DNA of 64,000 nucleotides from an uncultured SAR86 cluster bacterium (GTDB lineage: Bacteria > Pseudomonadota > Gammaproteobacteria > Magnimaribacterales > D2472). Under the pieces are notes generated by a model, which saw only the letters and a list, made by a program, of their open reading frames with translations, was not told the DNA's origin and did not search any database. Location of the stretch: assembly GCA_902509555.1 (NCBI GenBank), contig CABWYS010000003.1, forward strand, positions 937-64,936, given 5' to 3'. Shown one piece after another: positions 37,554-55,081 of the stretch; within the stretch, counting starts at the first letter, position 1, and each line of letters starts with the position of its first letter. The translations under genes were made by a program, and so were the position numbers.

Positions 37554-37666
37554 ATTTTAAATAATCATATTTTTTATTAAAAATCTTTTTTAAGCAGAGC
37601 ATGTTAATTATTAAATAAATATAATTCGTTATGGGAAATAATTTAACAAGCATCTACCTTAAGAAA

Positions 37667-38065
37667 CTATACATAAACATACTTTTTTTGCATTATAAAT
37701 GAATAAATAGCAAGAAGAATTACAGCTATCCCCTGTCCTAAATAAGATGGAATAAAGAATAAATTTTCAGCAATAAATAAAATAAAAATATTTAAAACAT
37801 ACATACTGAAATATATTGATAGAAAAATAATCTTTTGCTTTTTTTGGGGGCTGCTTTTTCGAAAAGTATGATTTTTGTTAAGAACATAAGATGTTGAGAT
37901 TGATAGCGGATATAAAAAACTTACAGCGAGATATGGAGAAAATTCTAATAAAATGGTCAAAGTTAGAAAAAGTGAATAGCCAATAAGGTTTGTGAGCATT
38001 CCAATAGCACCAAATCGTATAAGTTGATCTACATGAAAGTTGCGGGGAATTAACTTATTTCTCAT
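37667..38065 (-). CDS. GtrA-family small membrane protein (candidate polyprenyl-phosphate-sugar flippase)
   Basis: 132 aa, four hydrophobic helices. N-terminal RFGAIGMLTNLIGYSLF is typical of GtrA-like proteins. Confidence 0.7.
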   Translation of the reverse strand: MRNKLIPRNFHVDQLIRFGAIGMLTNLIGYSLFLTLTILLEFSPYLAVSFLYPLSISTSYVLNKNHTFRKSSPQKKQKIIFLSIYFSMYVLNIFILFIAENLFFIPSYLGQGIAVILLAIYSFIMQKKYVYV

Positions 38066-38984
38066 ATATAAGCTGAGCTAATCCGAAGCCTGTTTTACCG
38101 AATCCATTCCCATTATAAAGCATATACTTTTTTTTCTTATGGATAAAAACATAGGGATACTCAATCATTTCAGAATCCCATCCGCTATTTGAAATGTTAA
38201 GTAAGTCAGGGGTCTCAGACTGAGACCATTTTTCTCCATCAGCACTTTCAGCAAGTCTAATCCTGTATGAATCCCCATTCCCAGATCGATATGAAAACCA
38301 CATTTCATAATCTCCTGACTCATTAAAGGAAATAGATGGTCTTGACATCATCTGAAGTTTTTGATTTTGAAAAGATAACGCCAAGCCATCTTTCTTCCAT
38401 AACAAACCATCGTTTGAATGAGCCTTATGTATAGCATGAATCATCTTGCTATTTTTTTTATCATGGCCAATTGTGGATCCATACCATGCTAAAAAATTAG
38501 AAGATCTAGTTTCAAGAATCCATGGATAAGACAAGCTTATTGGGTCGATATCAGTATCAGTTTGAATTATTGGTTTGGGTGACACCTTATCAAGGAACAA
38601 TTTATTGGTCAGTGAAAAGAAACCTATTTCGCCTTTCCAGCTCCCATCTTCCATAGTGCGCCATCCCATAAAAGATATTGCCTTCTTGTTGTTTAGTTTA
38701 AACAAATTCCCTAAGCTAATACCGTCTGAAAAATATGAGGGTGTTGAGTCATATGTAACTATTGGTTTCTTATGTATTTTCAAAATCTTTCTTTTGATAA
38801 TATCAAAGTCTAATGCGCCTACAGAAGATCGATTGTGTGAGTCCCTAGCGCTGTAAAATATTCTAAATACATCGCCATTCAGCAAAACAGGAACAGGATT
38901 TGATGCATGAGTTAGAAGTTTGCTGTGATATGACTTCTTTCTTGGATCATAAATTTGACCAAGTTTAAGAAATTTTATACTCAT
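38055..38984 (-). CDS. Beta-propeller glycosidase/phosphorylase-like protein (GH130/GH43/GH32-clan-like)
   Basis: 309 aa and soluble. Repeated W/Y-rich blade-like segments (FRIFYSARD, FLAWYGST, YEMWFSYRS, YMLYNGNG...GFGLAQL). The call is by resemblance only. Confidence 0.45.
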   Translation of the reverse strand: MSIKFLKLGQIYDPRKKSYHSKLLTHASNPVPVLLNGDVFRIFYSARDSHNRSSVGALDFDIIKRKILKIHKKPIVTYDSTPSYFSDGISLGNLFKLNNKKAISFMGWRTMEDGSWKGEIGFFSLTNKLFLDKVSPKPIIQTDTDIDPISLSYPWILETRSSNFLAWYGSTIGHDKKNSKMIHAIHKAHSNDGLLWKKDGLALSFQNQKLQMMSRPSISFNESGDYEMWFSYRSGNGDSYRIRLAESADGEKWSQSETPDLLNISNSGWDSEMIEYPYVFIHKKKKYMLYNGNGFGKTGFGLAQLIYEK

Positions 38985-39655
38985 ATTTTTTTTATTTTAG
39001 AGCTACCTTCTTTGGAATTCTTGCTAGCGAGGCCCTTGATTAAACTATTTGCATGCTGATCATGCAAAACAAGTGCGCCAGCACCAACAATAGTTTTATT
39101 ACCTATTGTTATATGATCTCTAATTGTAGAGTTAACCCCTAAGAAACATTGATCTCCAATTTGAACACCGCCTGAGATTACAACATGAGAAGAAACAAAT
39201 GAATGGTCACCGATGCTCGAATGATGACCAATATGATTGCCACTCCATAAAGTGACATTGTTACCAATCCTAGCAAATGGTTGAATAGTATTGTCCTCTA
39301 GAATAAAACAATTTTCACCAATGTTAAAATCATTCAACACTGTGGAATAAGAACTTACATAACTTGCAAGATTATACCCTTTGCTTTTTGCCTCTAAATA
39401 TTTAGCTTTCCTTATAGAATTTAATTCAGAATAACTGAGAGCAATAAAAAGATCATGCTCGCTAGGACTATATTTTTTTTCAATGATCTCAAAAGAATAT
39501 ACTGGCAAAGAACAAAAAGTTGTTTCAGTGATATAGTTTTGATCAATAGTGAAGCAGCAAATGTCATATTGCGAATCATTCAAAAAATAATAATGAGCAA
39601 GTTGAGCAATCTGGCCTGTGCCAAAAATAATTAATTTTTTTTTCATTTCCATCAT
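38981..39655 (-). CDS. NeuD/PglD-family hexapeptide-repeat sugar N-/O-acetyltransferase
   Basis: 224 aa. N-terminal Rossmann-like KKLIIFGTGQIAQLAHYY, then left-handed beta-helix hexapeptide repeats (IGENCFI...IGNNVTL...IGDHSFV...IGDQCFL...IGNKTIV). Confidence 0.8.
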   Translation of the reverse strand: MMEMKKKLIIFGTGQIAQLAHYYFLNDSQYDICCFTIDQNYITETTFCSLPVYSFEIIEKKYSPSEHDLFIALSYSELNSIRKAKYLEAKSKGYNLASYVSSYSTVLNDFNIGENCFILEDNTIQPFARIGNNVTLWSGNHIGHHSSIGDHSFVSSHVVISGGVQIGDQCFLGVNSTIRDHITIGNKTIVGAGALVLHDQHANSLIKGLASKNSKEGSSKIKKI

Positions 39656-39661
39656 TAAATC

Positions 39662-40300
39662 TTATTTATAAACTAAAATTGTAAATTCATATAATCCATA
39701 ATTGTGGATTAGGGATACATTATCAGAATAGTGTCTTTTGCAATGATCAAAAAGTATCAAAGGATCGGCATAATAAAGTTTGGATGATCGCTTTTCAGCA
39801 TCAGAGTAAGAGCTTAAACAATTAAAAGAAAACCCTTTTTCACTGTATTTATTAAAATCATCTAAGGTCTTATAAATATAATTTCTCCATACTGATTCCT
39901 TTGAGTTAAGCTTAATATTAAATATTCCACTAGCAACAATAAAATCTGACATGGAAGATATATTAGAGGCTTCCTTAAATTCCACCCCTTTATAATTGAG
40001 GTAGTGTTTTTGAGCTGCTTGAATCATTAAAGGGGATATATCTAATCCTAGATAGATAAAATCTTTATTTAGATTTGCCAATATATCAACCAAGATTCCA
40101 TAGCCACATCCATAATCAAGGACTGAAAAAGCTTCAAAGCCTTCTGTTATTGTTAAAAGTTGCTCATATCTTAAAATTTGACTATCGCTTTCGTTCCAAT
40201 CTACTCCTTTTGCAGTCCTGCCATATAATTTAATAGATTTTGTATAGTAATTTTGTATATCTTGAAGAAGTTTATTCTGCTGCTTAATTTCATCTTTCAT
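39662..40300 (-). CDS. Class I SAM-dependent methyltransferase
   Basis: 212 aa with motif I VLDYGCGYGILV and the following LGLDISP. Confidence 0.75.
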   Translation of the reverse strand: MKDEIKQQNKLLQDIQNYYTKSIKLYGRTAKGVDWNESDSQILRYEQLLTITEGFEAFSVLDYGCGYGILVDILANLNKDFIYLGLDISPLMIQAAQKHYLNYKGVEFKEASNISSMSDFIVASGIFNIKLNSKESVWRNYIYKTLDDFNKYSEKGFSFNCLSSYSDAEKRSSKLYYADPLILFDHCKRHYSDNVSLIHNYGLYEFTILVYK

Positions 40301-41118
40301 GATGATTCTTTGGAATTTAAAAAAGCATCAATTGAGTCTGGAACTAAATTTTTATATCCAAGAACTTGTTTTTCAAAATCACTTAACTTCTTTTCAATTT
40401 CTTTTGGAAAAGAAATTTGCTGCTTTATGTATGGGATTGTGAATACATGATTGATGCCACGACGAATGCTGTTACTGAGGTTGATTCCCCCAGCATGAAA
40501 ACACATTGAATCAAAAACTATGAATTGCCCTCTTTGAGCTTCCAATTGAAGGCTTCTCTTCCTTATCTCAGATTTTGAAGGCAACCACTCCTCTTTGTGA
40601 GATCCAGGCAATACATATGTAGCCCCATTATCTAAAGTGAAGTTATCAATGCAAAATAGGCAGCTTATGGCAATAGGCTTTGATGTAACAAAATGTTGGT
40701 ATGGCAAATCTCTGTGCCAGCTTGCTTGAGTGTATGATGATGCATTTGCAGGGTTGAAAACAGCATTTTGTTGATTCAGAATAAAAGTTCCTTCAATCAA
40801 ATCATCAACTAAGGTAATTAAATTCTTATTAAAAACTAATTCTAGTAAACTTTTACTATGAGCAAAAGGCATTCTTACAATGTCTTTCTCGCCTCTAGTT
40901 TCTAAATTTTTAATTCCATATTTTTGCAAATAAGCCTGATGAACTTCCTCAAGAGACTTTTCTAGATCCAACAAATCGGCATCAGAAATCCCCGAATCAA
41001 TAACAGAATATCCAGACTTATATATAGATATGGCATGCTTGCTTTTGCCTGTCATTTTTGAGGAAGGCGCATTAAATGCACCATAAGAACTATTTGGAAT
41101 CTTGCTCATTGGTCTCAT
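40297..41118 (-). CDS. Phytanoyl-CoA dioxygenase (PhyH) family Fe(II)/2OG oxygenase
   Basis: 273 aa. WHRD (HxD facial triad context), GATYVLPGSH, distal His in MCFHAGGIN. The start may be an internal Met (41109 or later), which would reduce the overlap with the GT2. Confidence 0.7.
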   Translation of the reverse strand: MRPMSKIPNSSYGAFNAPSSKMTGKSKHAISIYKSGYSVIDSGISDADLLDLEKSLEEVHQAYLQKYGIKNLETRGEKDIVRMPFAHSKSLLELVFNKNLITLVDDLIEGTFILNQQNAVFNPANASSYTQASWHRDLPYQHFVTSKPIAISCLFCIDNFTLDNGATYVLPGSHKEEWLPSKSEIRKRSLQLEAQRGQFIVFDSMCFHAGGINLSNSIRRGINHVFTIPYIKQQISFPKEIEKKLSDFEKQVLGYKNLVPDSIDAFLNSKESS

Positions 41119-42025
41119 ATATTTTCTTCACAATTACATTAGGGCGTTGCTTCACTTCCATAAATATTTTTGATATGTAAATTCCTTGTATACTGTTTAA
41201 AAAAATTATCAAGCCAGAAAAAAGCCATATAGAGGCAATAATTGAGACATAACCTTCTGGAGGTGTTTGAAAAGTAAATAAGTAAACTAAATAACCTACA
41301 AATAAAAAAGCAGAAAAAGATAATAACAGGCCGCAATAGAATGAAAATCTTAACGGAAGACTGCTAAAAGAGGTTATAGAGTTCAGCAAATGATCAAGCT
41401 TGTGGCGATTAGTGTAAACCGACGGTGATGAAGAGTTTTTGGTAATTACTTGAAAGCATTGCTTGAAACCAGTAATAATAAATAATCCTCCTATATTCAT
41501 TTCTCTCTCTCCATGCAAAAGGAGTGCCTGAAGATATCTTCTACTCATAAGTCTTGCTGTAGTAATATTATTAGGTTGATCTAGCTTCGTAAATAATCTG
41601 AATAATTTATAAAATAAATAGCCAGATACTCTTTCAAATAATCTCCCTTTTCGTTTTTGCTGAACTCCATATACAAGGTCAGCTTTCTCAATATCCATAA
41701 GCTTATTAAATGAAAATAGCCATTCTGGTTGTTCTTCAAGATCAACATCAATTAAAAATATTTTTTCTCCCTTGGCATTCTTCAAACCAGCCATAATTGC
41801 CTGATGATGTCCAAAGTTTTTAGATAAATCTATAATCTTGATATTGAAGTTGCTAGACATTAAGCTCAAAGATATGTCCAAGCTTTTGTCAGGCGAGCCA
41901 TCATTTACAAAAATAATCTCGAAATCTTCGCCAACCAATTCCCTGGCAGCAATTGAAGCTCTGCTATGAAACTCCTCTATGTATGAAGAAGACCCATAAA
42001 GAGTTGTTACTATAGATAATTTCAT
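41090..42025 (-). CDS. GT2 glycosyltransferase of the polyprenyl-phosphate sugar synthase type (GtrB/ArnC/DPM1-like)
   Basis: 311 aa. LSIVTTLYGSS...FVNDGSPDKS, LSKNFGHHQAIMAGL, DVDLEEQPEW, plus two C-terminal TM helices. Confidence 0.8.
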   Translation of the reverse strand: MKLSIVTTLYGSSSYIEEFHSRASIAARELVGEDFEIIFVNDGSPDKSLDISLSLMSSNFNIKIIDLSKNFGHHQAIMAGLKNAKGEKIFLIDVDLEEQPEWLFSFNKLMDIEKADLVYGVQQKRKGRLFERVSGYLFYKLFRLFTKLDQPNNITTARLMSRRYLQALLLHGEREMNIGGLFIITGFKQCFQVITKNSSSPSVYTNRHKLDHLLNSITSFSSLPLRFSFYCGLLLSFSAFLFVGYLVYLFTFQTPPEGYVSIIASIWLFSGLIIFLNSIQGIYISKIFMEVKQRPNVIVKKIYETNEQDSK

Positions 42026-42040
42026 ATTTCTCTATGCATT

Positions 42041-42745
42041 TTAACTGGCATTAGACTTGCTTGCATTAAATAAGTAATTTTTTGACTCGCATCCACAATT
42101 AAACAAAAGATCTATAATAGAAATGCGGTCTTCAAAGTTGCCCCATAGTTGCGGATACGGACCATAATCAACATAATCAAACCACTCTACTTCAATTTTA
42201 TTTCCTTTAAAAATTTTAAGATCTAAATATTCTTTTGCCGATGGGCCTGAAATATATTTACTTGCACCAGATTGAATGCATAAATTAAGCAGCTTTTCAG
42301 ATCGACTGCCATGCAATTCATAAGAATTTGAGTCTGAAATTTTAGTTTTAATTTCTAAATATTTACAAATATTAATTATCAAGTTTCTATTTAAAGAGGA
42401 TAAATTTGTGTGATTAAAGCTATAAACTGGCTTAATAAATTCGATGATCTCGCCAAAAAAAGGGGCTTTTGCATAATTCATTGAAATAGCCTTCAAATGA
42501 TCTTGTTGCCACTTTTCTCCATCAATCTTAGTATCAAATATCGACTGAAAATACTTACCCTTAGTCTCCACAGGTACGCTCAGCCACTGCTTACCATTAG
42601 GTGTTTTAATGACATTCCGGTTTCGCCAATCCCTTTTAGTGTACTGCATTGAATCATAAATAATAAATTCATCGACATACCCAATTAGATCAAAATAACC
42701 TATCCATGGAATATAATTTGATTGAACAATTGCAACTTTTTTCAT
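42041..42745 (-). CDS. WbqC-family protein (function unknown; named from O-antigen clusters)
   Basis: 234 aa. N-terminus VAIVQSNYIPWIGYFDLI...YDSMQYTKRDWRNRN matches my recollection of the WbqC family signature. Confidence 0.7.
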   Translation of the reverse strand: MKKVAIVQSNYIPWIGYFDLIGYVDEFIIYDSMQYTKRDWRNRNVIKTPNGKQWLSVPVETKGKYFQSIFDTKIDGEKWQQDHLKAISMNYAKAPFFGEIIEFIKPVYSFNHTNLSSLNRNLIINICKYLEIKTKISDSNSYELHGSRSEKLLNLCIQSGASKYISGPSAKEYLDLKIFKGNKIEVEWFDYVDYGPYPQLWGNFEDRISIIDLLFNCGCESKNYLFNASKSNAS

Positions 42746-42782
42746 TGAGATATTTTGTCAATTAAAAACTTCATTGAGCATC

Positions 42783-44105
42783 TTATCCATTGATGCCTGT
42801 TAAGAAACTTACCCTTGTAGAAAGGATTACTATTCCAGCTATAGCTGGAGTTACAAAAATAATATTCAATATGACTGATGAAAAATATTTACTTGATAAA
42901 TTAATAAGGAAGGCAATGCCAAATGCAAAAAAAATTGCAAAAGGATATGAAAAGCCCATTAAGTGAGCTGAGAAAGCTTGCTGCAATATCATAACTAAAA
43001 CAAAAAATGCGAAGACAATAGGTGTTAAGAATTTTTTTGCACTTAAATTACTAGCCATTAATAAGCATAATCCAATTATCGATAGGAGTGATATTGCTGC
43101 CATTCCTATCAGAGATAAAGAACAGTTAAAAATAAAAATATTACTATTTAAATTTTCTTGAATAATTGATAATCCGCTATTAGGTAAACATGTTGACAGT
43201 CTATTACCAGCTAAAAACTGCATTGCTCCAATTATTCCTCCATTATGTATATCATCACCATTAATGCCCACTCTTGTCATAAAAGAGGAGCCTCCAGATA
43301 TTAAGAGCTCGCTACTTGCAAAAAATTTTAAAAATGATTGGATCATAAATGGCATTAAAAGACTTAATGGAATTAAAAATTTTTTATTATTACTGCTATT
43401 TGAAATAGATGGTAAAAAAATATTTAGGTTTGTTTTATCCTTGATTATGGTTGGAAGAAATATGATACCAATATAGAAAAAGCCTATGATTGCTCCCCAA
43501 ATATAATGGAATAACCCAGATAAAAAAAGAAAGAATAGAGCTATATTATTTTTGTTTGCATTAAGATATGACAACGCAATGATTAAAAAAAAAATAAAAA
43601 ATATTTCTGCCCAGGAGGCTAAAAACATTTTATAAACCCATGGAGAAGAAATAAATAAGATGAAAATGCCAATACCAACTAAAAAATTTGGAAATGAAGA
43701 CTTAAAAATTTTAATTCCTATTTCTGCAATCATTGCACCAGTTAAAAAAATGATTGTTTTATCAATAAGCGGCCCGTAAAAAAATAAAGCCTCCTTACCA
43801 CCAAAATGATTGATTAATAAATATGGAGATAATGGAAAAAAATTTGCAGACAAATAAACTCCCTGGTTCCAATAAACTATTGAGCAATCTGTGCATGAAG
43901 ACCATATAGAAAAACCATATGATGAAAAGTATCCATTTAATCTTAAATATTCTGCTGCATTAAAAATTTTTTGGGCATGCCAATCAAACCAATCAATTCC
44001 CAGAGGAGCTGAAAGGGACAAATAATATAAATATGCTGTACAAATTAAAAAGTATGTTGATATGCGGGCAATTCTAGCCAAATGAATAATATTCATAAAC
44101 ATCAT
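42783..44105 (-). CDS. Polytopic membrane protein, candidate GT-C-type glycosyltransferase (or Wzy/ligase-like)
   Basis: 440 aa, about 10-12 hydrophobic helices. Acidic/aromatic first loop (GIDWFDWHAQK). Function inferred from context only. Confidence 0.4.
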   Translation of the reverse strand: MMFMNIIHLARIARISTYFLICTAYLYYLSLSAPLGIDWFDWHAQKIFNAAEYLRLNGYFSSYGFSIWSSCTDCSIVYWNQGVYLSANFFPLSPYLLINHFGGKEALFFYGPLIDKTIIFLTGAMIAEIGIKIFKSSFPNFLVGIGIFILFISSPWVYKMFLASWAEIFFIFFLIIALSYLNANKNNIALFFLFLSGLFHYIWGAIIGFFYIGIIFLPTIIKDKTNLNIFLPSISNSSNNKKFLIPLSLLMPFMIQSFLKFFASSELLISGGSSFMTRVGINGDDIHNGGIIGAMQFLAGNRLSTCLPNSGLSIIQENLNSNIFIFNCSLSLIGMAAISLLSIIGLCLLMASNLSAKKFLTPIVFAFFVLVMILQQAFSAHLMGFSYPFAIFFAFGIAFLINLSSKYFSSVILNIIFVTPAIAGIVILSTRVSFLTGING

Positions 44106-44113
44106 TATAAACG

Positions 44114-45130
44114 CTAACTTTGTTTTCTTAAATTATGAATAATTTCTGAGGTTACCTGATGATCGCCAGAAAAAATTGATGGGGCAATCCTAGAAGCGAT
44201 ATCGCCATATCGATTTTTAATTTCACGAGAAATTTCAAGCGGAGTACCTGTAACTGCCATGCTTTCTAACATTTCATCCGAGATAAATCCCGCTATTTTG
44301 TGCCACTCTCCTTTTTTAGTAAGTTGATTTAAATCTTGCTGCACTCCTTCCCATCCATGTTGCTCTAAAACTACTCTATAGGCAGGGGTAGAACCATAAA
44401 ATCCAATTTGTGCCTTGCAGGCATCCCTTGCTTTAGCAATTTCCTCATCAGTTATTCCCGTTGCAACCATGACACCCAATGAAATATCAAATTCTTTTGC
44501 TGCTGATAATTCAAGTCCTTTTTTTATAGAAGGCAAGGTGATATTTTCTAAAAACTTAGTTGTGTGAAAAGGATGCACAATGAAACCATCACCAGATTCA
44601 GCTGCAGCTTGAGTCATCATTGGCCCCACACCTGCAACATATATTTTTGGGAGACCAAATGGATTTTCTCCCGGATTAAAAATAGGAGTCATAAGTGTAT
44701 GTTGATAAAACTCGCCTTTAAAATCCAGATCTTTCCCTTCATGCCAACACCCCCAAATAGCCTTGATAGCATCAACCATTTCTTTCATGCGTTTTGCAGG
44801 TGAAGACCAGGGCATAGAGTATCTCTTTTCAATATGAGGTTTTATTTGGGACCCTATGCCGAGCGTAAATCTCCCCTTGGACATCAACTGAAGGTCATAG
44901 CCAATATTAGCCAAAGTCATAGGACTCCTAGAAAATGCAACTGCTATTGAGGTTAAGAGTTCTAACTTTTCTGTTGCAAGAGCAGCGGCAGCAAGAGGCA
45001 AAAATGGTTCATGAGGTCCTTCAAAAGTATAGGCGCCATCGTATCCAAGATCTTCTAACTCCTTGCTTGCTTTTGAAGCTTCTGATGGATCTCGAGTAAT
45101 CATCGAACAGTCTATTTTAATTTTTTTCAT
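44114..45130 (-). CDS. Luciferase-like monooxygenase (LLM) class flavin/F420-type oxidoreductase
   Basis: 338 aa with TIM-barrel LLM character (GYDGAYTFEGPHEPFLPLAAAA, RFTLGIGSQ). Its stop lies 8 nt before the next gene. Confidence 0.7.
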   Translation of the reverse strand: MKKIKIDCSMITRDPSEASKASKELEDLGYDGAYTFEGPHEPFLPLAAAALATEKLELLTSIAVAFSRSPMTLANIGYDLQLMSKGRFTLGIGSQIKPHIEKRYSMPWSSPAKRMKEMVDAIKAIWGCWHEGKDLDFKGEFYQHTLMTPIFNPGENPFGLPKIYVAGVGPMMTQAAAESGDGFIVHPFHTTKFLENITLPSIKKGLELSAAKEFDISLGVMVATGITDEEIAKARDACKAQIGFYGSTPAYRVVLEQHGWEGVQQDLNQLTKKGEWHKIAGFISDEMLESMAVTGTPLEISREIKNRYGDIASRIAPSIFSGDHQVTSEIIHNLRKQS

Positions 45131-45196
45131 CTTGAATTATTTCTACGTTAATCATGAATGATTATGATGGATGTATTTCAATTTGTGTATCCCGAG

Positions 45197-45224
45197 TGGT
45201 AATATAAAAATCAGTCTATTACCA
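45197..45224. promoter_or_regulatory. 28-bp palindromic operator candidate TGGTAAT-N14-ATTACCA (site 1)
   Basis: Read directly in the LLM/NMO divergent spacer. It ends 14 nt before the ATG at 45239. Half-sites and spacing are identical to the site at 47057-47084. Confidence 0.6.
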
Positions 45225-45238
45225 ATATAGGAAAAATA

Positions 45239-46378
45239 ATGAACTCAAAGATTTGCGAACTTCTTGATATAGAATTCCCTCTTGTTGCATTTACCCACTG
45301 TAGAGATGTTGTTGTAGCAGTATCAAAAGCAGGTGGATGCGGCGTACTAGGTGCTGTTGGAATGACTCCTGAACAGCTTGAAGAAGAGCTGAAGTGGATT
45401 GATGATCATATCGATGGGCTTCCATACGGCGTGGATGTTTTAATCCCCAATAAAATGGCCGATCAAAATCAAAAATTTGATCCTGAAAAATTAACCTCGA
45501 TGATTCCTCAAGAATATGCAGATTTTAGAGCAGACATCTTAGAACAGCATGACATTGAAGCTGATGAACTACGAACAATCAAAACAGCAGCAACATACAT
45601 GGCTGAAAATACTAAAGCAGATGGTGCAAAAGCTTTGCTGGATGTTGCATTTAGTCATCCGATAAAAATAATTGCAAATGCATTGGGCGTCCCGCCTGAC
45701 TGGATGGTGAAAATGGGGAAAGATAATAATGTAAAAGTTGCGGCCCTTCTAGGTACTGCACAACACGCTATCAATCAAGTAAAAGCAGGTGTTGATATTT
45801 TGGTTGTCTCCGGCACAGAGGCTGGCGGTCATTGTGGGAGTGTTTCAACCATGGTCTTAATTCCGGAAGTTCATGAAGCCATTCAACCATATGGTGATGT
45901 ACCAATTCTAGCTGCAGGAGGGATCGCAACTGGAAGACAAATGGCAGCTGCGATGAGCATGGGAGCATCAGGCGCTTGGTGTGGCTCTGTATGGTTAACA
46001 ACAGCTGAATCTGAAGTTCCGCCTGTGATAAAAGAAAAAATGGTCGCTGCAACCTCAAGCCAAACAACCAGATCAAGAAGCAGAACAGGAAAGCACTCTA
46101 GACAGTTGGTTTCTGAATGGACAAAAGCCTGGGAAGCAGACGGAGCTCCTGAACCACTTCCATTGCCACTGCAGCCTATGGTAGCTGAACCAGCATTGGC
46201 AAAAGTTAATAAATTAGCAGAAGGCGGACATGAAGGCGCCAAAGAACTTTCGACTTACTGGGTCGGTCAAGGCGTGGGATTGATGAACCAAACAATCTCA
46301 GCAAGTGATGTGGTTCAAGATTTTAAAGAAGACTTCATAGATGCATATGAAAGACTGGCAAATTTTGTAGGTGATTAA
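45239..46378 (+). CDS. Nitronate monooxygenase (NMO/2-nitropropane dioxygenase) family FMN enzyme
   Basis: 379 aa. IEFPLVAF...AVSKAGGCGVLGA and GTEAGGHCG motifs. Confidence 0.78.
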   Translation: MNSKICELLDIEFPLVAFTHCRDVVVAVSKAGGCGVLGAVGMTPEQLEEELKWIDDHIDGLPYGVDVLIPNKMADQNQKFDPEKLTSMIPQEYADFRADILEQHDIEADELRTIKTAATYMAENTKADGAKALLDVAFSHPIKIIANALGVPPDWMVKMGKDNNVKVAALLGTAQHAINQVKAGVDILVVSGTEAGGHCGSVSTMVLIPEVHEAIQPYGDVPILAAGGIATGRQMAAAMSMGASGAWCGSVWLTTAESEVPPVIKEKMVAATSSQTTRSRSRTGKHSRQLVSEWTKAWEADGAPEPLPLPLQPMVAEPALAKVNKLAEGGHEGAKELSTYWVGQGVGLMNQTISASDVVQDFKEDFIDAYERLANFVGD

Positions 46379-47002
46379 TTACTCAGGAGCAGAATATCTT
46401 TGAGATACAGCTCTTTGAAATCCATCTCTTTCAAAAAGCATGTCAGTCCAACGCTTGATATTAGGTTTAAATGCTTCCTCTATTTGAAGAGTTTTAGCTA
46501 AATAGATAGCATAACTAACGCATATATCTGCAATTGTAAATCTATCTGAGCACAAGTATTCTCTTGATTCCAAAGATTTCTCCAACAGCTTTAATCTAGC
46601 AACAAACCATCTTCTATAACCTTCTGCAGCCTTATCCGCAACACCTACCTCTTGAAATGTGTACCTTAAGACAACGGTTTGAGGGAAAGTTAAAGTAGCA
46701 TCTGAATGAGCAAGCCAATTTAAATAATGGTGAAAATCAGCCTCATCACTATTAACTTTCAAGTCAGTAGGGCCATATTTTTCGACTAAATATTGACACA
46801 TAGCAACTGATTCTGTCATTTCTACTTCACCATCAATTAAATATGGAATGGTGCCAAGAATATTTACATCCATATATTCTTTATGCAAAAACCTTGGAGG
46901 GAATGGCATCATCTCAGATTCATAACTTACTCCCATCTCCTCTGCGGTCCACATTGGCCTTAAACCTCTAGAATCATTGCAGCTATAAATTTTGATGCTC
47001 AT
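46379..47002 (-). CDS. Glutathione S-transferase family protein
   Basis: 207 aa. Thioredoxin-like N-domain (GTIPYLIDGEVEMTESVAMCQYL) and a helical C-domain. Confidence 0.75.
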   Translation of the reverse strand: MSIKIYSCNDSRGLRPMWTAEEMGVSYESEMMPFPPRFLHKEYMDVNILGTIPYLIDGEVEMTESVAMCQYLVEKYGPTDLKVNSDEADFHHYLNWLAHSDATLTFPQTVVLRYTFQEVGVADKAAEGYRRWFVARLKLLEKSLESREYLCSDRFTIADICVSYAIYLAKTLQIEEAFKPNIKRWTDMLFERDGFQRAVSQRYSAPE

Positions 47003-47056
47003 TATTTTCTCCTAAAAAATAGAAAAGCCATGATTTTTAAAATTAATTTCAAAAAA

Positions 47057-47084
47057 TGGTAATTATTTGTATATTATATTACCA
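47057..47084. promoter_or_regulatory. 28-bp palindromic operator candidate TGGTAAT-N14-ATTACCA (site 2)
   Basis: Read directly in the GST/carboxylase divergent spacer. It ends 20 nt before the ATG at 47105. Confidence 0.6.
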
Positions 47085-47104: not shown

Positions 47105-48763
47105 ATGCCAAGAAAAAATATTGCTCCCGAAATCAAAACAAGTATTGATATAAATTCTGATGAATTTATTCATAACAAAAAAGTGATGTTAAAGAAAATA
47201 AATTTCCTTGATGAGCTTTTAGACAAAGCTGAATTAGGAGGCGGGGCTTATCACCACGAAAGATTAGCAAAACGAGGAAAGATGCCCGTAAGAGAAAGAG
47301 TTTTTAATTTGCTAGATCCTGATACACCCTTCTTGGAGATTGCTCCATTTGCTGCTTATGGAACAGACTTCACAGTGGGTGGTGGATGCGTTGCTGGAAT
47401 TGGAATTGTTGCCGGTACTGAATGTGTAATCTTTGCTAATGATCCTTCGGTTTTAGCTGGCGCCATGACGGTTTATGTTGGAGAAAAATGGAACAGGGCA
47501 ATGGAAATTGCTCGAGATAACCGTTTGCCCTATATTAATTTTGTGGAATCTGCAGGAGGAGATCTTCGAATGGGTACTGGTAAGAAAGGAGATCAACCCC
47601 CCATCGCACCCACCATAGGTCATACTCATTTTGCAGCAACTGGAAGATATTTTTATGATCTTACAGAGCTTTCTAAGATGCGCATTCCGGTGATATCAAT
47701 TGTTTTTGGTTCTTCAACTGCCGGTGGTGCTTATCAACCAGGTATGTCTGATTACAATATCTTTATTAAAGATCAAGCTAAAGTTTTTCTTGCAGGACCT
47801 CCTCTAGTCAAAATGGCTACTGGTGAAATATCAGATGATGAGACCTTGGGTGGCGCAAAAATGCATTCAGAAGTTTCAGGTCTATCAGATTATCTAGCTG
47901 AAGATGAGATGGATGCTCTAAGATTATGCAGGAATGTAGTCTCACATTTGCATTGGATTAAAGAGGGTCCCTCGCCTATTTCAGATGCTGATAGTCCAAG
48001 TTTATCTGAGGAAGAATTATTAGGTCTTGTTGATGAAGAACTCAAAAGTCCTCTTGATATTAGGGAGGTGATTGGTCGAATTGTTGATGGGTCAAGATTT
48101 GAAGAGTTCAAACCTCTTTATGGTAAAACTATGATTTGCGGATGGTCAATGCTTCACGGATATCCTGTTGGCATATTAGGAAATAATGGTCCCATCTATC
48201 CGGAAAGTGCTGAAAAAGCTGCAACCTTTATACAACTATGCAATAAACGAAACATGCCATTAATTTTTCTTCAAAATGTCACGGGTTTTTTAGTAGGAAA
48301 AGATTTCGAGAGACAGGCTATTATTAAAAAAGGCTCTCAGCTTATTAATGCAGTGTCTAACTCTAATGTACCTCATATCACAATTATTATTGGTGCTTCA
48401 TTTGGTGCAGGTACATACGCTATGTCGGGCAGAGCATATAATAATAGATTCACTTTTCTCTGGCCCACAGCAAAAATTGCTGTTATGGGTTCGAAGCAGA
48501 TTGCTGGAGTAATGTCGATTGTTCGAAGAGGTCAAGCCGCAAGAAAAGGTGAAAAATTTGATGAAAAACTTGATGCTCAAATCGTAGAGACAGTTGAGCA
48601 AATGTCAGACCAGATGTCAGAGGGGCTGGTTGCAAGCAGCATGGTTACCGATGATGGCATCATTGACCCAAGAGATACAAGAAGTGTTATTGGATTTTGC
48701 TTATCTATAGTTTCTAACTCTTCAATTGATGGAGCTAAAGAATATGGAGTATTTAGATTATGA
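47105..48763 (+). CDS. Acyl-CoA carboxylase carboxyltransferase (beta) subunit, MCC/geranyl-CoA carboxylase-like
   Basis: 552 aa. Two crotonase-like CT domains (ANDPSVLAGAM, STAGGAYQPGM, FGAGTYAM). Confidence 0.85.
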   Translation: MPRKNIAPEIKTSIDINSDEFIHNKKVMLKKINFLDELLDKAELGGGAYHHERLAKRGKMPVRERVFNLLDPDTPFLEIAPFAAYGTDFTVGGGCVAGIGIVAGTECVIFANDPSVLAGAMTVYVGEKWNRAMEIARDNRLPYINFVESAGGDLRMGTGKKGDQPPIAPTIGHTHFAATGRYFYDLTELSKMRIPVISIVFGSSTAGGAYQPGMSDYNIFIKDQAKVFLAGPPLVKMATGEISDDETLGGAKMHSEVSGLSDYLAEDEMDALRLCRNVVSHLHWIKEGPSPISDADSPSLSEEELLGLVDEELKSPLDIREVIGRIVDGSRFEEFKPLYGKTMICGWSMLHGYPVGILGNNGPIYPESAEKAATFIQLCNKRNMPLIFLQNVTGFLVGKDFERQAIIKKGSQLINAVSNSNVPHITIIIGASFGAGTYAMSGRAYNNRFTFLWPTAKIAVMGSKQIAGVMSIVRRGQAARKGEKFDEKLDAQIVETVEQMSDQMSEGLVASSMVTDDGIIDPRDTRSVIGFCLSIVSNSSIDGAKEYGVFRL

Positions 48764-50679
48764 GATTTAATTCAATTCTTGTTGCTAATCGCGGAGAAAT
48801 TGCCTGTCGAATCATGCAAACCGCTCAATTTATGGGTATAAAATGTGTAGCTGTTTTTGTTGATGCTGATAAGGATGCTCCATTTGTAAAGATGGCAGAT
48901 GAAGCCATCAAGTTATCTTCTAGCTACATGGATGGCTCTGCCATCATTGATGCAGCTAAACAATCTGGAGCAGAAGCAATCCATCCAGGATATGGATTTT
49001 TATCAGAAAATGAAGCCTTTGCAAGAAAAGTTAAAAGCAATAAATTAATTTGGATTGGTCCATCCCCTCATGTAATCAAGGTCATGGGTGATAAATTAAA
49101 AGCCAAAGAACTAGCTGAAAAATCTGGGGTTCCCACTCTGCCAATGACCTCAAATACCAAAGATGTAAAAAGTATTGGCTACCCGATCTTGATCAAAGCT
49201 GCCGCTGGAGGTGGTGGTAAAGGAATGCGAATTGTTAAAAAAGAAAGTGAATTAAAAGATTCAATCATAAGCGCTAAAAGAGAAGCTCTCTCAGGTTTTG
49301 GTGATGACAGAATTTTTATAGAAAGATATGTAGAAAAATCGCGTCATATTGAAATACAAATCTTAGGTGATGAACACGGTAATGTCGTTCATTTGGGAGA
49401 ACGTGAATGCTCCATACAAAGAAGACATCAAAAAATTATTGAGGAGTCGCCTTCTCCAAGAATTGATCCATTTTTACGTGAGGAGATGGGTCAAGCAGCT
49501 GTTAAATTAGCTAAAAAAATTAAATACTGCTCTGCAGGAACTGTTGAATTTTTATTTGATGATAAAACAGATGAATTCTGGTTTTTAGAGGTTAATACTA
49601 GACTGCAAGTTGAGCACCCAGTTACAGAAGAAGTTACAGGAATAGATTTAGTTGCTGAGCAAATCAAGATAGCGAGAGGAGATGAGCTTGAATTTGCTCA
49701 AGATGATATTGATTGGCATGGACATGCAATTGAAGCAAGATTATATGCTGAAGATCCTGGAAATAACTTTTTACCTGAAATAGGAACATTGCACGCATAT
49801 GATACTAGTCTAGCTTCAGAGGTAAGATGGGATTCAGGGGTGGAAGAAGGTAGTGTTATTGGAACAGATTTTGATCCCATGCTATCTAAGGTTATTTCTT
49901 GGGCGCCTAATAGAATTGATGCTGCAAATAAATTGGCACGTGGACTTGAAAGAGCTCACATGGGAGGTGTAGTAACAAATCGTCAATTTTTAATTTCTTG
50001 CTTAAGAAATGAAAACTTCATAAGCGGAAATACAACAACAGACTTTATTGAACGCGAAGCTTTAGAAACTAAAAAGAATCTTTCAGTAAATGAGCTTCAT
50101 CAAACATCAACAGCACTTGCTTTATGGCTAGCACAACAAAATAGAGTCTCTGACCCTGTTACAGGTTTTATGCCTGCAAACTGGACCAATGGAAGAATGC
50201 CTCTTCAAAGGGTTAAGTTGCTTTTTATACAAGATGAGATAGAAGTGCAATATAAATTAAATAAAGATAATTTATATGAAGTTATGGGCTCCATTTGTGA
50301 AATTTACCATTGTGATATTGCTGGCATTGATGTGGAGATAGACTCTCACAGATTTTATGCTCATGTAACTGAGGCAGGCAGTGAAATCACTATTAACATG
50401 CCGTTTGGAGACGTTAATGCATCTGTTCTACCCAGGTTCATAGAACCGGGTAATGACGTCCCTGAGGGAGGTTTGATCGCTCCAATGCCTGGAAAAGTTA
50501 TTGATGTAAAGGTTAAAAAAGGCAGTAAAGTAAAAACTGGGGATACTTTAGTAATTATTGAGGCAATGAAAATGGAACATGCAATTAAAGCAACTGAGAC
50601 AGGCAAGATAGCTAAAGTGATGATTAAACTTAATGATCAAGTTGACAACGGAGCTACCCTTCTCGTTCTTGAAAAATAG
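48760..50679 (+). CDS. Acyl-CoA carboxylase biotin carboxylase/BCCP (alpha) subunit
   Basis: 639 aa. ATP-grasp BC domain (ILVANRGEIACRI, GGGGKGMR, EVNTRLQVEHPVTE). C-terminal biotinyl domain EAMKMEH (Lys codon 50569-50571). Confidence 0.9.
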   Translation: MRFNSILVANRGEIACRIMQTAQFMGIKCVAVFVDADKDAPFVKMADEAIKLSSSYMDGSAIIDAAKQSGAEAIHPGYGFLSENEAFARKVKSNKLIWIGPSPHVIKVMGDKLKAKELAEKSGVPTLPMTSNTKDVKSIGYPILIKAAAGGGGKGMRIVKKESELKDSIISAKREALSGFGDDRIFIERYVEKSRHIEIQILGDEHGNVVHLGERECSIQRRHQKIIEESPSPRIDPFLREEMGQAAVKLAKKIKYCSAGTVEFLFDDKTDEFWFLEVNTRLQVEHPVTEEVTGIDLVAEQIKIARGDELEFAQDDIDWHGHAIEARLYAEDPGNNFLPEIGTLHAYDTSLASEVRWDSGVEEGSVIGTDFDPMLSKVISWAPNRIDAANKLARGLERAHMGGVVTNRQFLISCLRNENFISGNTTTDFIEREALETKKNLSVNELHQTSTALALWLAQQNRVSDPVTGFMPANWTNGRMPLQRVKLLFIQDEIEVQYKLNKDNLYEVMGSICEIYHCDIAGIDVEIDSHRFYAHVTEAGSEITINMPFGDVNASVLPRFIEPGNDVPEGGLIAPMPGKVIDVKVKKGSKVKTGDTLVIIEAMKMEHAIKATETGKIAKVMIKLNDQVDNGATLLVLEK

Positions 50680-50680
50680 C

Positions 50681-51283
50681 ATGAAATCTCAAACCATCCT
50701 CTCAAGCAAGTCACCTCAAATTGGAAAGCGCCATCTTGAAGTGATGGATGAGCTAGAAAGTATGCTTGATCAAGGAAAGTCATTTTCAACAATGTCTGAT
50801 CTTGCAAAAAAATTGAAAATTTCATTAAGAACTCTATACGAAATTGCACCAAGCAAAGAGGAGCTTATAGTGACAACAGTTGATAGAGTGTTAAAAAAAC
50901 ACGGTAAGATTGCTATGGATGCAATGAACACTCATTCATCTCCAATTAAAAAATTAGAAAGTTTTTTAACTGTTGCCAATCAAGCGGTTGGGCCAAGATT
51001 TGAAAGATTCACACTATCTCTTAGTAGTTTAAATTCGTCTAAGCCAATGGTGGACTATCATGAGCAATACATAACAGACCTAATAAAAAATCTTTTAGAT
51101 GAAGCAAGAATTAAAAATGAGATCAAGGAAATTGATACTCAGGCAACTGCATTACTATTGGGAGGCCTTGGTAGATATTTTCAATCTAAGAAACTCTTAA
51201 AAGATTTGCATCAAACTCCTGAAAAAACTAGTAACTTCTTAACAAAAATCATTATTGATGGCATAAAAATGGAGAAATCTTGA
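50681..51283 (+). CDS. TetR-family transcriptional regulator
   Basis: HTH segment MSDLAKKLKISLRTLYEIAPSKEELI. I prefer the ATG at 50681 (MKSQTI...), 1 nt after the upstream stop, over the track start at 50633. Confidence 0.78.
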   Translation: MKSQTILSSKSPQIGKRHLEVMDELESMLDQGKSFSTMSDLAKKLKISLRTLYEIAPSKEELIVTTVDRVLKKHGKIAMDAMNTHSSPIKKLESFLTVANQAVGPRFERFTLSLSSLNSSKPMVDYHEQYITDLIKNLLDEARIKNEIKEIDTQATALLLGGLGRYFQSKKLLKDLHQTPEKTSNFLTKIIIDGIKMEKS

Positions 51284-53055
51284 GCGAAGAAATTATAAGG
51301 ATTGCAAATTGTAGCGGCTATTACGGAGATAAATTATCTGCTGCTAAAGAAATGGTGGATGGAGGGCCTATAGATGTACTGACTGGAGACTATTTAGCAG
51401 AACTCACCATGACAATTCTTTTTAATCAAAAGATGCAGCGAGGAGATGATAAGGGATACGTGGGTACTTTTCTCAAACAAGTGAAAGCAGTAGCTAAGTC
51501 ATGCAAAGAGAAAAATATTAAAATTGTTACAAATGCGGGTGGCTTGAACCCCTCTTCTATGGCTAATGAAATAGAAAAAATCTTAGATGAGCTCAATATT
51601 TCTCTCAAAGTAGCTTACATAACTGGCGATGATTTAATGCCAAGAATGGAGTCCTTAAAAAATGAAGGAGAATCGTTTCTTAACATCGATAAAAATATCC
51701 CGATTGATAAATCAGGATGTCAAACACTCACAGCAAATGCTTATCTTGGAGCTTGGGGAATTAAAGAAGCATTAGATGAGGGAGCTGATATTGTAGTATG
51801 CCCAAGGGTGACGGATGCTGCAGTAGTCATTGGTCCAGCAGCATGGAAATTTAATTGGAAGAGAAATGATTATGATGCATTGGCTGGTGCATTAGCAGCC
51901 GGTCATATCATTGAATGTGGATGCCAGGCAACTGGCGGGAACTATTCTTTTTTTAAAGAGGTGCCCAGCTTTGACAATGTGGGCTATCCAATAGCTGAAA
52001 TCAAAAACGACGGAAGTTTTTACATTACCAAACATCCAGGCACTGGGGGTTTAGTATCTACCGGAACTGTAACAGCGCAGCTTTTATATGAAATTAGCGC
52101 TCCTGCATACTTAAATCCAGATGTTATAGCTCATTTTGATACCTTGAATATTGAGGAAGTCTCTAAAGACAGAGTTTATGTATCAGGTTGCAGGGGAAGC
52201 TCACCAACTAATACTCACAAAGTCTGTATTAATCTTGCTGGTGGTTATAGAAATGGTATGGAGTTTATTCTTACAGGCATAGATATTGAAGAAAAAGCTC
52301 AAATTATAAGTGATGCACTATTTAACTCTGTTGGAGGCAAAGAGCAATTTGATGAGGTTTCAATTTTATTAGATAGAACCGACAAAAAAGATCCCCATTC
52401 TAATGAAGAAGCAATGGCCTCTCTTAGAATTTCGGTCAAATCAAAAGACCCTGATTTAGTTGGCAGAATGTTTACAGCAAAAATGATAGAGTTGGCTTTA
52501 GCCAATTATCCAGGATTTTTTACTGGAGGAGGAGTAAGATCTGGAGGACCGGTCTTAGTCTATTGGCCTGCTTTGATAGATAGCAAACACATTGAAGAGA
52601 CTGTTCATATAGACGGCAAAGAAATTAATGTAAAGCCAACTAATCAACTCGATTTAGAAGAAACCTATTATCAAAAACAACCAATTGAAATACCTCCTCC
52701 TCCATCGGGTCAAACTCTCAACAAACCATTAGGAGAGCTTTTTGGTGCTAGATCTGGTGATAAAGGTGGTTGTGCGAATATCGGTGTATGGGCCAAAAAT
52801 GAAAATGCATTCTCTTTTTTAAATAATTATCTAACTGTCGAAAAAATCAAAGAATTGATGCCTGACATAAGGGAATTTGAAATAGATAGGTATGAGCTTC
52901 CAAACATACTTTCACTAAATTTTTACATCCATGACATATTAGAAGATGGAGTTTCTTCTAATACTAGGAAAGATGGCCAAGCTAAATCTCTCGGGGAATA
53001 CTTAAGAGCTAAGTATGCAGATATCCCTAAATCTTTATTTGAGGAAAACATATGA
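51280..53055 (+). CDS. AtuA-like acyclic terpene utilisation protein (DUF1446)
   Basis: 591 aa. N-terminus IRIANCSGYYGDK and overall size match my recollection of AtuA/DUF1446. TTG start 6 nt after a GGAG, overlapping the TetR stop. Confidence 0.7.
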   Translation: MSEEIIRIANCSGYYGDKLSAAKEMVDGGPIDVLTGDYLAELTMTILFNQKMQRGDDKGYVGTFLKQVKAVAKSCKEKNIKIVTNAGGLNPSSMANEIEKILDELNISLKVAYITGDDLMPRMESLKNEGESFLNIDKNIPIDKSGCQTLTANAYLGAWGIKEALDEGADIVVCPRVTDAAVVIGPAAWKFNWKRNDYDALAGALAAGHIIECGCQATGGNYSFFKEVPSFDNVGYPIAEIKNDGSFYITKHPGTGGLVSTGTVTAQLLYEISAPAYLNPDVIAHFDTLNIEEVSKDRVYVSGCRGSSPTNTHKVCINLAGGYRNGMEFILTGIDIEEKAQIISDALFNSVGGKEQFDEVSILLDRTDKKDPHSNEEAMASLRISVKSKDPDLVGRMFTAKMIELALANYPGFFTGGGVRSGGPVLVYWPALIDSKHIEETVHIDGKEINVKPTNQLDLEETYYQKQPIEIPPPPSGQTLNKPLGELFGARSGDKGGCANIGVWAKNENAFSFLNNYLTVEKIKELMPDIREFEIDRYELPNILSLNFYIHDILEDGVSSNTRKDGQAKSLGEYLRAKYADIPKSLFEENI

Positions 53056-53843
53056 GTGTAGATAAATTATCTTTAGAGGGTTTGCATTTTCAAGCAACGA
53101 AAGTAAGTGTTAAAAATAATATTTTAACTATTACATTAAATCGACCTGAGAAAAAAAACGCATTAAATAATGTGATGATGAATGAGCTGAATTATGCTTT
53201 AGCGTTCGCGAAACAAGAAAAAGAAATCAGAGTTGTTGTTATTGATGCGGAAGGAGATATTTTTTGTGCCGGAGCTGATCTAAGGCTTGCTAAAGAAGAT
53301 TCTAATGTCCCAAAAATAGAGGGTGCAGATGACATCAGTTTCTCTCTTAGAAGACTGCACAAACCAGCTATATGCAAAATTCAAGGCTCTGTTTTAGCCG
53401 GAGCCTTGTTGATTTTAACCAATGCAACACATGCCATAGCAGTCGATACTGCAAAGTTTTCAGCGCCTGAGATACACAGAGGCTTGTGGCCTTTTATGGT
53501 TATGGCTGGATTATTCAGAGTGATGCCTAAAAGAGCTGGGCTTGATTTTATTATGCGAGGTCAGCCTATTAATGCCAATCAGGCTGAAAGATGGGGGTTG
53601 ATTAATGAATCTGTAGCGGCTAATGAATTGGATAAAAGAGTTAGCGAGCTGGCTGAAGAACTAGCTAGCCTGGCGCCAGGAACTATGCAATTTGGTCTAG
53701 AGGCATATGAGAAACAAGACGCTTTAGAATTTGATGAGGCTCTGCCTTATTTACAAAAACAAATTGCTAAATGTTTTGAAGGTGATGATGCTAAGGAAGG
53801 TATTGCTGCGTTTTTAGAAAAAAGAAAACCCAATTGGAAATAA
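53052..53843 (+). CDS. Enoyl-CoA hydratase/isomerase (crotonase) family protein
   Basis: 263 aa. NRPEKKNALN, FCAGADL, C-terminal EGIAAFLEKRKPNW. Confidence 0.88.
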   Translation: MSVDKLSLEGLHFQATKVSVKNNILTITLNRPEKKNALNNVMMNELNYALAFAKQEKEIRVVVIDAEGDIFCAGADLRLAKEDSNVPKIEGADDISFSLRRLHKPAICKIQGSVLAGALLILTNATHAIAVDTAKFSAPEIHRGLWPFMVMAGLFRVMPKRAGLDFIMRGQPINANQAERWGLINESVAANELDKRVSELAEELASLAPGTMQFGLEAYEKQDALEFDEALPYLQKQIAKCFEGDDAKEGIAAFLEKRKPNWK

Positions 53844-53856
53844 ATAGGGAAGAATT

Positions 53857-55080: not shown

Positions 55081-55081
55081 A

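Follow-up and report, generated by a model that had tools for sequence, protein, structure and literature searches.

A 28-bp palindrome as candidate operator of a TetR-family regulator encoded within an atu-like operon of SAR86-type bacteria

The 64,000-nt stretch of DNA analyzed here (the window; contig CABWYS010000003.1 of assembly GCA_902509555.1) comes from an uncultured SAR86 cluster bacterium and contains a tightly packed operon (47105–56167) that encodes carboxyltransferase (CT), biotin carboxylase (BC), a TetR-family regulator, AtuA, enoyl-CoA hydratase (ECH) and two acyl-CoA dehydrogenases (ACADs). The TetR gene begins 1 nt past the BC stop codon, and its own stop codon overlaps the AtuA start; this gene order is kept in all relatives examined. 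GST is divergent from CT and, further upstream, a luciferase-like oxidoreductase gene (LLM) is divergent from an NMO-family gene. Each of the two divergent spacers carries one exact copy of the palindrome TGGTAAT-N14-ATTACCA, site 1 in the LLM–NMO spacer and site 2 in the GST–CT spacer (Table 1). Here we argue from comparative genomics that site 2 is likely the operator of the repressor encoded within the operon, with site 1 possibly acting in this genome as a weaker operator for NMO.

A preliminary description of this DNA had reported the two palindromes with identical 7-nt arms, a 14-nt spacing and distances of 14 and 20 nt to the downstream start codons, and had placed both in divergent spacers of about 100 nt, with no further pair in the window. 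Each of these particulars was confirmed. Site 1 is separated from the NMO start codon by 14 nt and site 2 from that of CT by 20 nt, and the spacers measure 108 nt (LLM–NMO) and 102 nt (GST–CT). When up to two mismatches were allowed, the window yielded 5 matches against 0.36 expected, a number reached in 0 of 100 shuffles. The genome as a whole (G000; 1,049,113 bases, 36% GC, 53 contigs, about 70% complete) has sites 1 and 2 alone at 0–1 mismatch; from base composition, ∼0.012 exact copies would be expected. With a weight matrix derived from the sites of relatives, site 2 scored 29.0 bits and site 1 23.9 bits, and the third-best genomic match (12.5 bits) fell inside the range of shuffled-genome maxima (9.5–19.3). 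Neither the mismatch scan nor the weight-matrix scan of this genome gave any further site above noise, and the regulon here comprises at most two promoter regions. The 9-nt half-site TGGTAATAT, taken alone, occurs at chance frequency (23 observed versus 22.5 expected). Hence, it is the paired arrangement, not the single half-site, that is special. A literature search with the motif words returned unrelated primer and sequence matches only, and no paper in the collection searched describes the motif.

Table 1. Candidate operator sites, operon genes and neighboring features of the locus (window coordinates)
Feature	Coordinates	Strand	Sequence, basis or remark
Site 2, primary operator (candidate)	47057..47084	.	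TGGTAATTATTTGTATATTATATTACCA; GST–CT spacer
Site 1, secondary genus-specific copy	45197..45224	.	TGGTAATATAAAAATCAGTCTATTACCA; LLM–NMO spacer
CT, carboxyltransferase	47105-48763	+	Pfam/NCBIfam
BC, biotin carboxylase/BCCP	48760-50679	+	Pfam/NCBIfam
TetR-family regulator, 200 aa, proposed binder	50681-51283	+	Profile and fold
AtuA	51280-53055	+	Pfam/NCBIfam
ECH, enoyl-CoA hydratase	53052-53843	+	Pfam/NCBIfam
ACAD 1, acyl-CoA dehydrogenase	53857-55080	+	Pfam/NCBIfam
ACAD 2, acyl-CoA dehydrogenase	55082-56167	+	Pfam/NCBIfam
NMO-family (PF03060) oxidoreductase	45239-46378	+	Pfam; site 1 directly upstream
GST	46379-47002	-	Pfam; divergent from CT
LLM, F420-type luciferase-like oxidoreductase (TIGR03617)	44114-45130	-	NCBIfam, 437.6 bits; divergent from NMO
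Conserved block adjoining site 1	45155..45196	.	∼40 nt; ATGATTATGATGGATGTATTCCATTTTGTGTATCCCGAG in congeners

The regulator encoded between BC and AtuA belongs to the TetR family, as judged by an ortholog profile, its modeled nine-helix fold and structural matches. Taken as a single sequence, the protein scores below the Pfam threshold for TetR_N (21.0 bits versus a cut-off of 24; E = 2.8e-4), and NCBIfam returns only weak matches to KstR and SlmA. A profile of 13 orthologs searched against the PDB identified 6azh as the best TetR structure (E = 1.2e-9), with dozens of further TetR chains behind it, and also matched AibR (E = 3.3e-4). The AlphaFold2 model has nine helices (pLDDT 82.9, pTM 0.76), and the top 50 Foldseek matches in the PDB are all TetR-family proteins (TM-scores 0.48–0.72), QacR among them. 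The nearest structures, KstR2, 6azh, FadR, AibR and PfmR, are those of acyl-CoA sensors, and many of the matches regulate lipid or branched-chain metabolism in response to acyl-CoAs. The helix-turn-helix (HTH) segment, TMSxLAxxLKISLRTLYEIAPSK, is arranged as in TetR proteins. Its recognition helix (SLRTLYE.APS) is invariant among orthologs, in parallel with the invariant arms of the palindrome.

Phylogenetic footprinting showed site 2 to be invariant in the orthologous CT spacers of the genus. TetR orthologs are present in 21 of 24 congeneric genomes, the LLM–NMO and GST–CT-BC-TetR orders are conserved, and the arms of site 2 are identical in all 18 congeners whose contig reaches the GST–CT spacer, including one with a TetR just 51% identical. 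By contrast with the invariant 28-mer, the half of the spacer nearer to GST is free to vary.

We then considered 121 genomes of the family, from 10 genera. The exact motif was found once per genome in 84 of these, compared to 2 for a reversed-pattern control; two exact copies were seen in the genome of the window alone, and being identical in two promoters is thus peculiar to it. In every genus examined, seven besides that of the window, the motif lies immediately upstream of CT and the operon contains an embedded TetR ortholog (46–61% identical). The extended consensus is TGGTAATAT-N10-ATATTACCA, and every site found keeps the same spacing, which is 7-N14-7 or, in most genera, 9-N10-9. Exact motif and TetR occur together in 80 genomes and are both missing from 28, with 4 genomes having the motif only and 9 having TetR only. 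Three of the motif-only cases are contigs that stop before the TetR position, and in the fourth (G100) the match lies within a 1035-codon open reading frame (ORF) and was rejected as an operator, being a chance match. Four of the TetR-only cases were shown to be contigs ending within CT; the rest are near contig ends or involve cut genes. A separate observation concerns the integrity of the regulator gene in some of these genomes. In G098 (G098:C2:402598-402813), the TetR match covers residues 4–75 only and runs through a TGA, with the exact operator kept, and in three genomes of genus g12 (G050, G058, G084) there is one TAA inside the TetR match. These interrupted copies may be recent pseudogenes, alignment edge effects or assembly errors.

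The association extends beyond the family. In G025, from another family, TetR is 40% identical, the operon reads NMO-CT-BC-TetR-AtuA-ECH, and an exact site lies ∼31 nt upstream of the NMO-family gene. Searching named genomes with the TetR alignment gave 40 loci from marine gammaproteobacterial metagenome-assembled genomes (MAGs) and single-cell genomes, SCGC AAA076-P13 and AAA168-P09 among them and some labeled Woeseia. We scanned 39 of the 40, and every locus that reaches the CT upstream region (34 of 34) carries one exact copy there. Loci with an exact site extend to 34% TetR identity and 44% locus GC. One locus appears to have moved. L055, from a genome of genus g13 (G101), has an operon that groups with those of the other family (G025, L104) rather than with its own genus in a tree of CT, BC and AtuA, which suggests that the whole operon plus operator was horizontally transferred. 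Its divergent neighbor, too, is not GST.

Two lineages lack both the regulator and the motif. None of 11 genomes of genus g16 contains an exact motif or a TetR ortholog. In three g16 loci, and likewise in G048, a genome assembled as a single contig, the operon is kept but BC and AtuA are separated by a gap of only 4–8 nt with no TetR gene, the GST–CT spacer has shrunk to ∼55 nt, and the motif is gone. In a tree of concatenated CT, BC and AtuA, G048 falls inside the g17+g1 clade (support 1.0) and g16 inside the g12/g15/g14/g10/g13 clade (support 0.96). As these clades otherwise bear TetR, gene and site must have been lost together twice, independently. This joint loss, over a distance of 3.6 kb, is in our view the strongest available evidence that the in-operon TetR, rather than some other factor, reads the palindrome. 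Because motif and TetR co-occur across ∼115 genomes and were lost together in two lineages, TetR is by far the best candidate binder. In genus g18, neither AtuA nor TetR was found in the two genomes checked, and no genome has the exact motif. A conserved 1-mismatch match in g16 was considered as a displaced operator and rejected; it lies within a 560-aa ORF 3 kb from CT and reflects coding conservation. The ∼55-nt spacers of g16 and G048 (L059–L062) keep a TAATAT or TATAAT word (TTGTTAATATAATATC; TACTAATATCG), which may be the surviving −10 element of the CT promoter.

Several points weigh against this reading and should be kept in mind. Many of the assemblies are incomplete. Related genomes are not independent, and the informative events are two losses, several rearrangements at the level of genera and, probably, one operon transfer. 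The named-locus search was partly keyed on an HTH peptide, making HTH conservation there partly a matter of construction; the DNA motif was not in the query. The genome encodes about five further TetR_N candidates. An inner pseudo-palindrome, TAATATTA, which would be expected for a site bound by two dimers, is absent from both of its sites. −10-like hexamers occur both upstream of and inside the site, and the sequence does not fix the promoter. At site 1, the left-arm pattern TGnTAAT is explicable by a promoter −10 alone, the right arm in L066 has decayed (to GGTACCG) despite a 99% identical TetR, and NMO orthologs that stand alone in other genera lack an upstream site. The presence of other TetR-like genes, together with a half-site spacing of two turns that is unusual for a single TetR dimer, could mean that another transcription factor encoded elsewhere binds the palindrome. 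We consider this very unlikely, given that in two independent lineages nothing is missing from the locus except the TetR gene and the stretch of spacer that bears the motif, and that the motif accompanies TetR both in the apparently moved operon of G101 and into other families.

Across sites, the operator ends 11–44 nt from the start codon. A scan for consensus promoters gave 7 matches versus 7.4 in shuffled sequences, and hence no excess. TAnnnT hexamers peak 18–19 nt upstream of the site in only 22–24 of 57 sequences, and they abound inside the site as well. With promoter-like hexamers ∼13 nt upstream and also within, the operator would either overlap the −10 element or cover ∼+5 to +35, both of which are classical positions for repression. 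A −10 element lying ∼13 nt upstream would leave the whole palindrome transcribed, and the element might then act as an RNA hairpin (stem of 7–11 bp, loop of 6–14 nt) in the 5′ leader of CT or NMO, influencing translation or stability. Predicted hairpins range from −4.4 to −9.8 kcal/mol. Yet the stem is invariant over deep divergence while the loop varies, there are zero compensatory changes, and the changes seen at site 1 break pairs. Moreover, the stem is AU-rich and weak in the genome of the window (−4.4 kcal/mol), and a hairpin gives no account of co-loss with the gene of a DNA-binding protein 3.6 kb away. These data make an RNA-level mechanism highly improbable.

The palindrome could also be viewed as a bidirectional promoter core, since each half-site is readable as an extended −10 element (TG-n-TAATAT). 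Two such elements would face in opposite directions, with no dedicated repressor involved, and it fits this idea that both sites lie in divergent spacers and that the TetR-less lineages retain a TAATAT word in the CT spacer. Against it, TGGTAATAT is not enriched in the genome, and at the CT site, in contrast to promoter elements, neither the 'n' nor the bases flanking it vary. In addition, the second arm and the TGG were lost exactly where TetR was lost, even though the operon still needs a promoter. A promoter without a repressor is thus highly improbable, and we regard recognition of site 2 by the in-operon TetR as the better account.

In the mechanism we envisage, the recognition unit would be the half-site TGGTAAT, usually extended to TGGTAATAT, two inverted copies of which make the 28-bp element. 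Without inducer, the repressor would occupy the operator, which would overlap the CT promoter or adjoin it downstream, and would block transcription of CT-BC-TetR-AtuA-ECH-ACAD-ACAD. Its own gene would be included, giving negative autoregulation; that the atu-like operon is autoregulated through site 2 seems to us very probable. Release would probably be triggered by an acyl-CoA or fatty-acid-like pathway intermediate, as the pathway and the nearest structural relatives of the regulator both point to an acyl-CoA or related acid as ligand. In this genome and some congeners, the weaker site 1 would put the NMO-family gene under the same control. What we propose about binding, direction of regulation, ligand, stoichiometry and the function of site 1 draws throughout on comparative genomics.

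How many dimers would be bound is a more delicate matter. Half-site centers are 19–21 bp (∼two helical turns) apart, too wide for one TetR dimer, and this leads us to favor two dimers per operator, as for QacR and IcaR, although the chances that this is correct are roughly balanced. In most genera, each half contains a TAAT|ATTA core (e.g. TGGTAATATTAAT), which both sites of this genome lack. Recognition might instead be unusual, with a TetR tetramer, or two dimers each making one specific HTH contact. We think this unlikely. If true, however, it would define a distinct class of operator geometry within the TetR family, in which strongly specified 9-bp half-sites (TGGTAATAT) lie two turns apart with the middle nearly free. 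Such a motif would have been frozen over two or more families of streamlined marine bacteria, and the regulon rewired per lineage, for NMO by a site of its own, divergent placement or operon fusion, and in genus g15 for an ACAD pair.

The preliminary description had proposed that TetR represses both divergons. For site 2 and the CT operon, the co-occurrence and co-loss described above support this proposal. Repression from site 1 is plausible, but the site is genus-specific and often degenerate. Among 16 aligned congeneric spacers, 9 match site 1 with 0–1 mismatch and 7 with 2–4 mismatches; the exact sequence occurs only in the genome of the window, and the site is confined to the genus. Its left arm varies mainly at position 3 (TGG, TGA or TGC before TAAT), which is the 'n' of TGnTAATAT, and its right arm, mismatched at 1–4 positions in all congeners except one, has disappeared from L031, L033 and L066. 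In the most diverged congeners (L039–L042), the 14-nt spacer is entirely different, yet ATTAC(C/T) persists at an unchanged distance, which argues for some constraint on site 1.

One can explain this pattern by supposing that only site 2 works. Site 1 would then be a non-functional or barely functional look-alike, with a left arm that is simply the extended −10 element (TGnTAATAT) of NMO and a right arm due to drift or left as a relic. In keeping with this, left-arm changes fall exactly at the 'n', a position where all CT sites have the G, the right arm is as variable as described, and NMO has no site in most other genera. On the other hand, an exact 14-base match lying 1.86 kb away from the primary site would be expected ∼1e-4 times by chance (from composition), the spacing of ATTAC(C/T) survives replacement of the spacer in L039–L042, and two other lineages also tie NMO to the operator. 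We judge the look-alike explanation to be a serious one that is nonetheless rather less than likely, and a functional site 1 to be moderately likely.

The links in other lineages take different forms. In genus g17, NMO diverges from CT and the two have a single site in common, and in G025 an NMO-family paralog is the first operon gene behind the site. With this genus, three arrangements therefore tie an NMO-type gene to the operator, which makes NMO a plausible and, we think, probable second target in this genome. The earlier inclusion of NMO in the regulon accordingly holds in part, supported by g17 and G025 and tempered by the restriction of site 1 to the genus, with 2–4 mismatches in 7 of 16 spacers.

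The remaining proposed members fare less well. For GST, co-regulation is possible from position alone; however, GST and CT are adjacent in most genera, including lineages that lack TetR and motif, and nothing beyond position speaks for membership. Membership of LLM is not supported. Its predicted promoter (TACACA-17-CATAAT, 45189–45161) lies between site 1 and the gene, placing site 1 upstream of the predicted −35 element and off the core promoter, so repression of LLM from site 1 is not expected. Conservation within the LLM–NMO spacer of 16 congeners is highest in the block at 45155–45196, ATGATTATGATGGATGTATT(C/T)CA(A/T)TTTGTGTATCC, which coincides with this minus-strand promoter-like match and is probably the LLM promoter or the site of another factor. 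The preliminary description had further suggested that a glycan island downstream of LLM might belong to the regulon. This ten-gene island (window 35689–44105) follows LLM in the genome of the window and is absent there in most of the congeners compared (L024–L042), where the genes directly after LLM are one encoding 343 aa (MSKSFLGRLMLDLDG...) and an RraA-like one. The island is a strain-variable insertion, and we rejected it as a conserved regulon member.

Elsewhere in the family, a second site was noted in genus g15. A conserved 1-mismatch copy, TGGTAATAGAATATAATTCTAATTACTA (L051:4992-5019; G053:C1:330591), is also present in G098, G046, G061 and G068. It lies ∼30 nt upstream of a different ACAD pair, which diverges here from a gene for a 226-aa membrane protein, and looks like a lineage-specific expansion of the regulon. 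A further observation concerns L066 (JAYQIT010000001.1), labeled Luminiphilus sp. Its copy of the locus is 98–99% identical, and GC shifts from ∼37% to ∼61% inside AtuA, ∼10.3 kb into the locus, which suggests that the assembly is a chimera of a SAR86-type genome and a high-GC one.

Comparison with characterized systems places this regulator close to several of them without equating it to any. AtuR of Pseudomonas is a TetR repressor of the acyclic-terpene utilization cluster, released by fatty or terpenoid acids (bioRxiv 10.1101/2025.09.24.678253). Both systems have a TetR-family regulator in a cluster with AtuA, a biotin carboxylase pair, a hydratase and ACADs, and a palindrome in a divergent promoter region. 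The AtuR regulon is likewise tiny, with a second site at an ACAD gene (bioRxiv 10.1101/2025.09.24.678253), comparable to the second site of g15 at an ACAD pair. However, atuR is divergent from atuA, whereas TetR lies here in mid-operon between BC and AtuA, and the AtuR operator is a 24-bp imperfect repeat, TACAAACCAAGCGCTTGCTTGGTA, that is unrelated to the present motif in both sequence and spacing (bioRxiv 10.1101/2025.09.24.678253). Orthology to AtuR would entail the same operator and the divergent gene arrangement; operator and gene placement instead set the two systems apart.

In operator size and position, the closest parallels are QacR/IR1 and IcaR/ica, in which 28-bp operators are bound cooperatively by two dimers on opposite faces (PMC2275139). 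There, too, a 28-bp palindrome adjoins or covers the promoter and start codon and is too wide for one dimer (PMC2275139); TetR operators bound by a single dimer measure 15–18 bp (PMC5389471). The targets of QacR and IcaR differ, being efflux or biofilm genes, and the inner flanking pseudo-palindromes of the two-dimer model (here TAATATTA) are found in most genera but not in the two sites of this genome. AibR of Myxococcus xanthus is an in-operon TetR protein that senses isovaleryl-CoA (PMC5389471). It resembles the present regulator in the location of its gene within the controlled operon, in having one extra target locus elsewhere, and in sequence profile and fold. Its ligand is a branched acyl-CoA, and an acyl-CoA would be the probable ligand here. 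Differences are the 18-bp near-perfect palindrome, bound by one dimer, the DNA binding of the ligand-bound form, and a pathway that is biosynthetic rather than catabolic.

The LiuQ, LiuR, PsrA and FadP regulons similarly combine a conserved core operon with lineage-specific expansions (PMC5343134), albeit with other regulators and other motifs. Here, the core is the CT operon, and the expansions are NMO in g1 and g17, the ACAD pair in g15 and the NMO paralog in G025. LiuQ was reported to be unique to betaproteobacteria (PMC5343134), whereas the present TetR subfamily is found in SAR86-type and other marine gammaproteobacterial MAGs.

Functionally, then, the locus appears to encode a circuit like those of AtuR, AibR and FadR, with a TetR repressor, an acyl-CoA catabolic operon and a very small regulon. 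The mechanism is that of a standard TetR autoregulatory circuit and is unsurprising; what is new is the regulator–operator pair itself. Abundant and uncultured, SAR86-type bacteria possess very few regulators. The pair offers a handle on the switching of a branched-chain or terpenoid-type acyl-CoA catabolic operon in these cells, and the motif is useful for annotating the true operon start in MAGs. Comprising a 200-aa protein and a 28-bp site, the pair is amenable to study in E. coli, with no need for cultures of the source organism, and the identity of the inducer could reveal the substrate of the pathway. Finally, the lineages that lack TetR provide an in situ contrast between regulated and constitutive expression of the operon.

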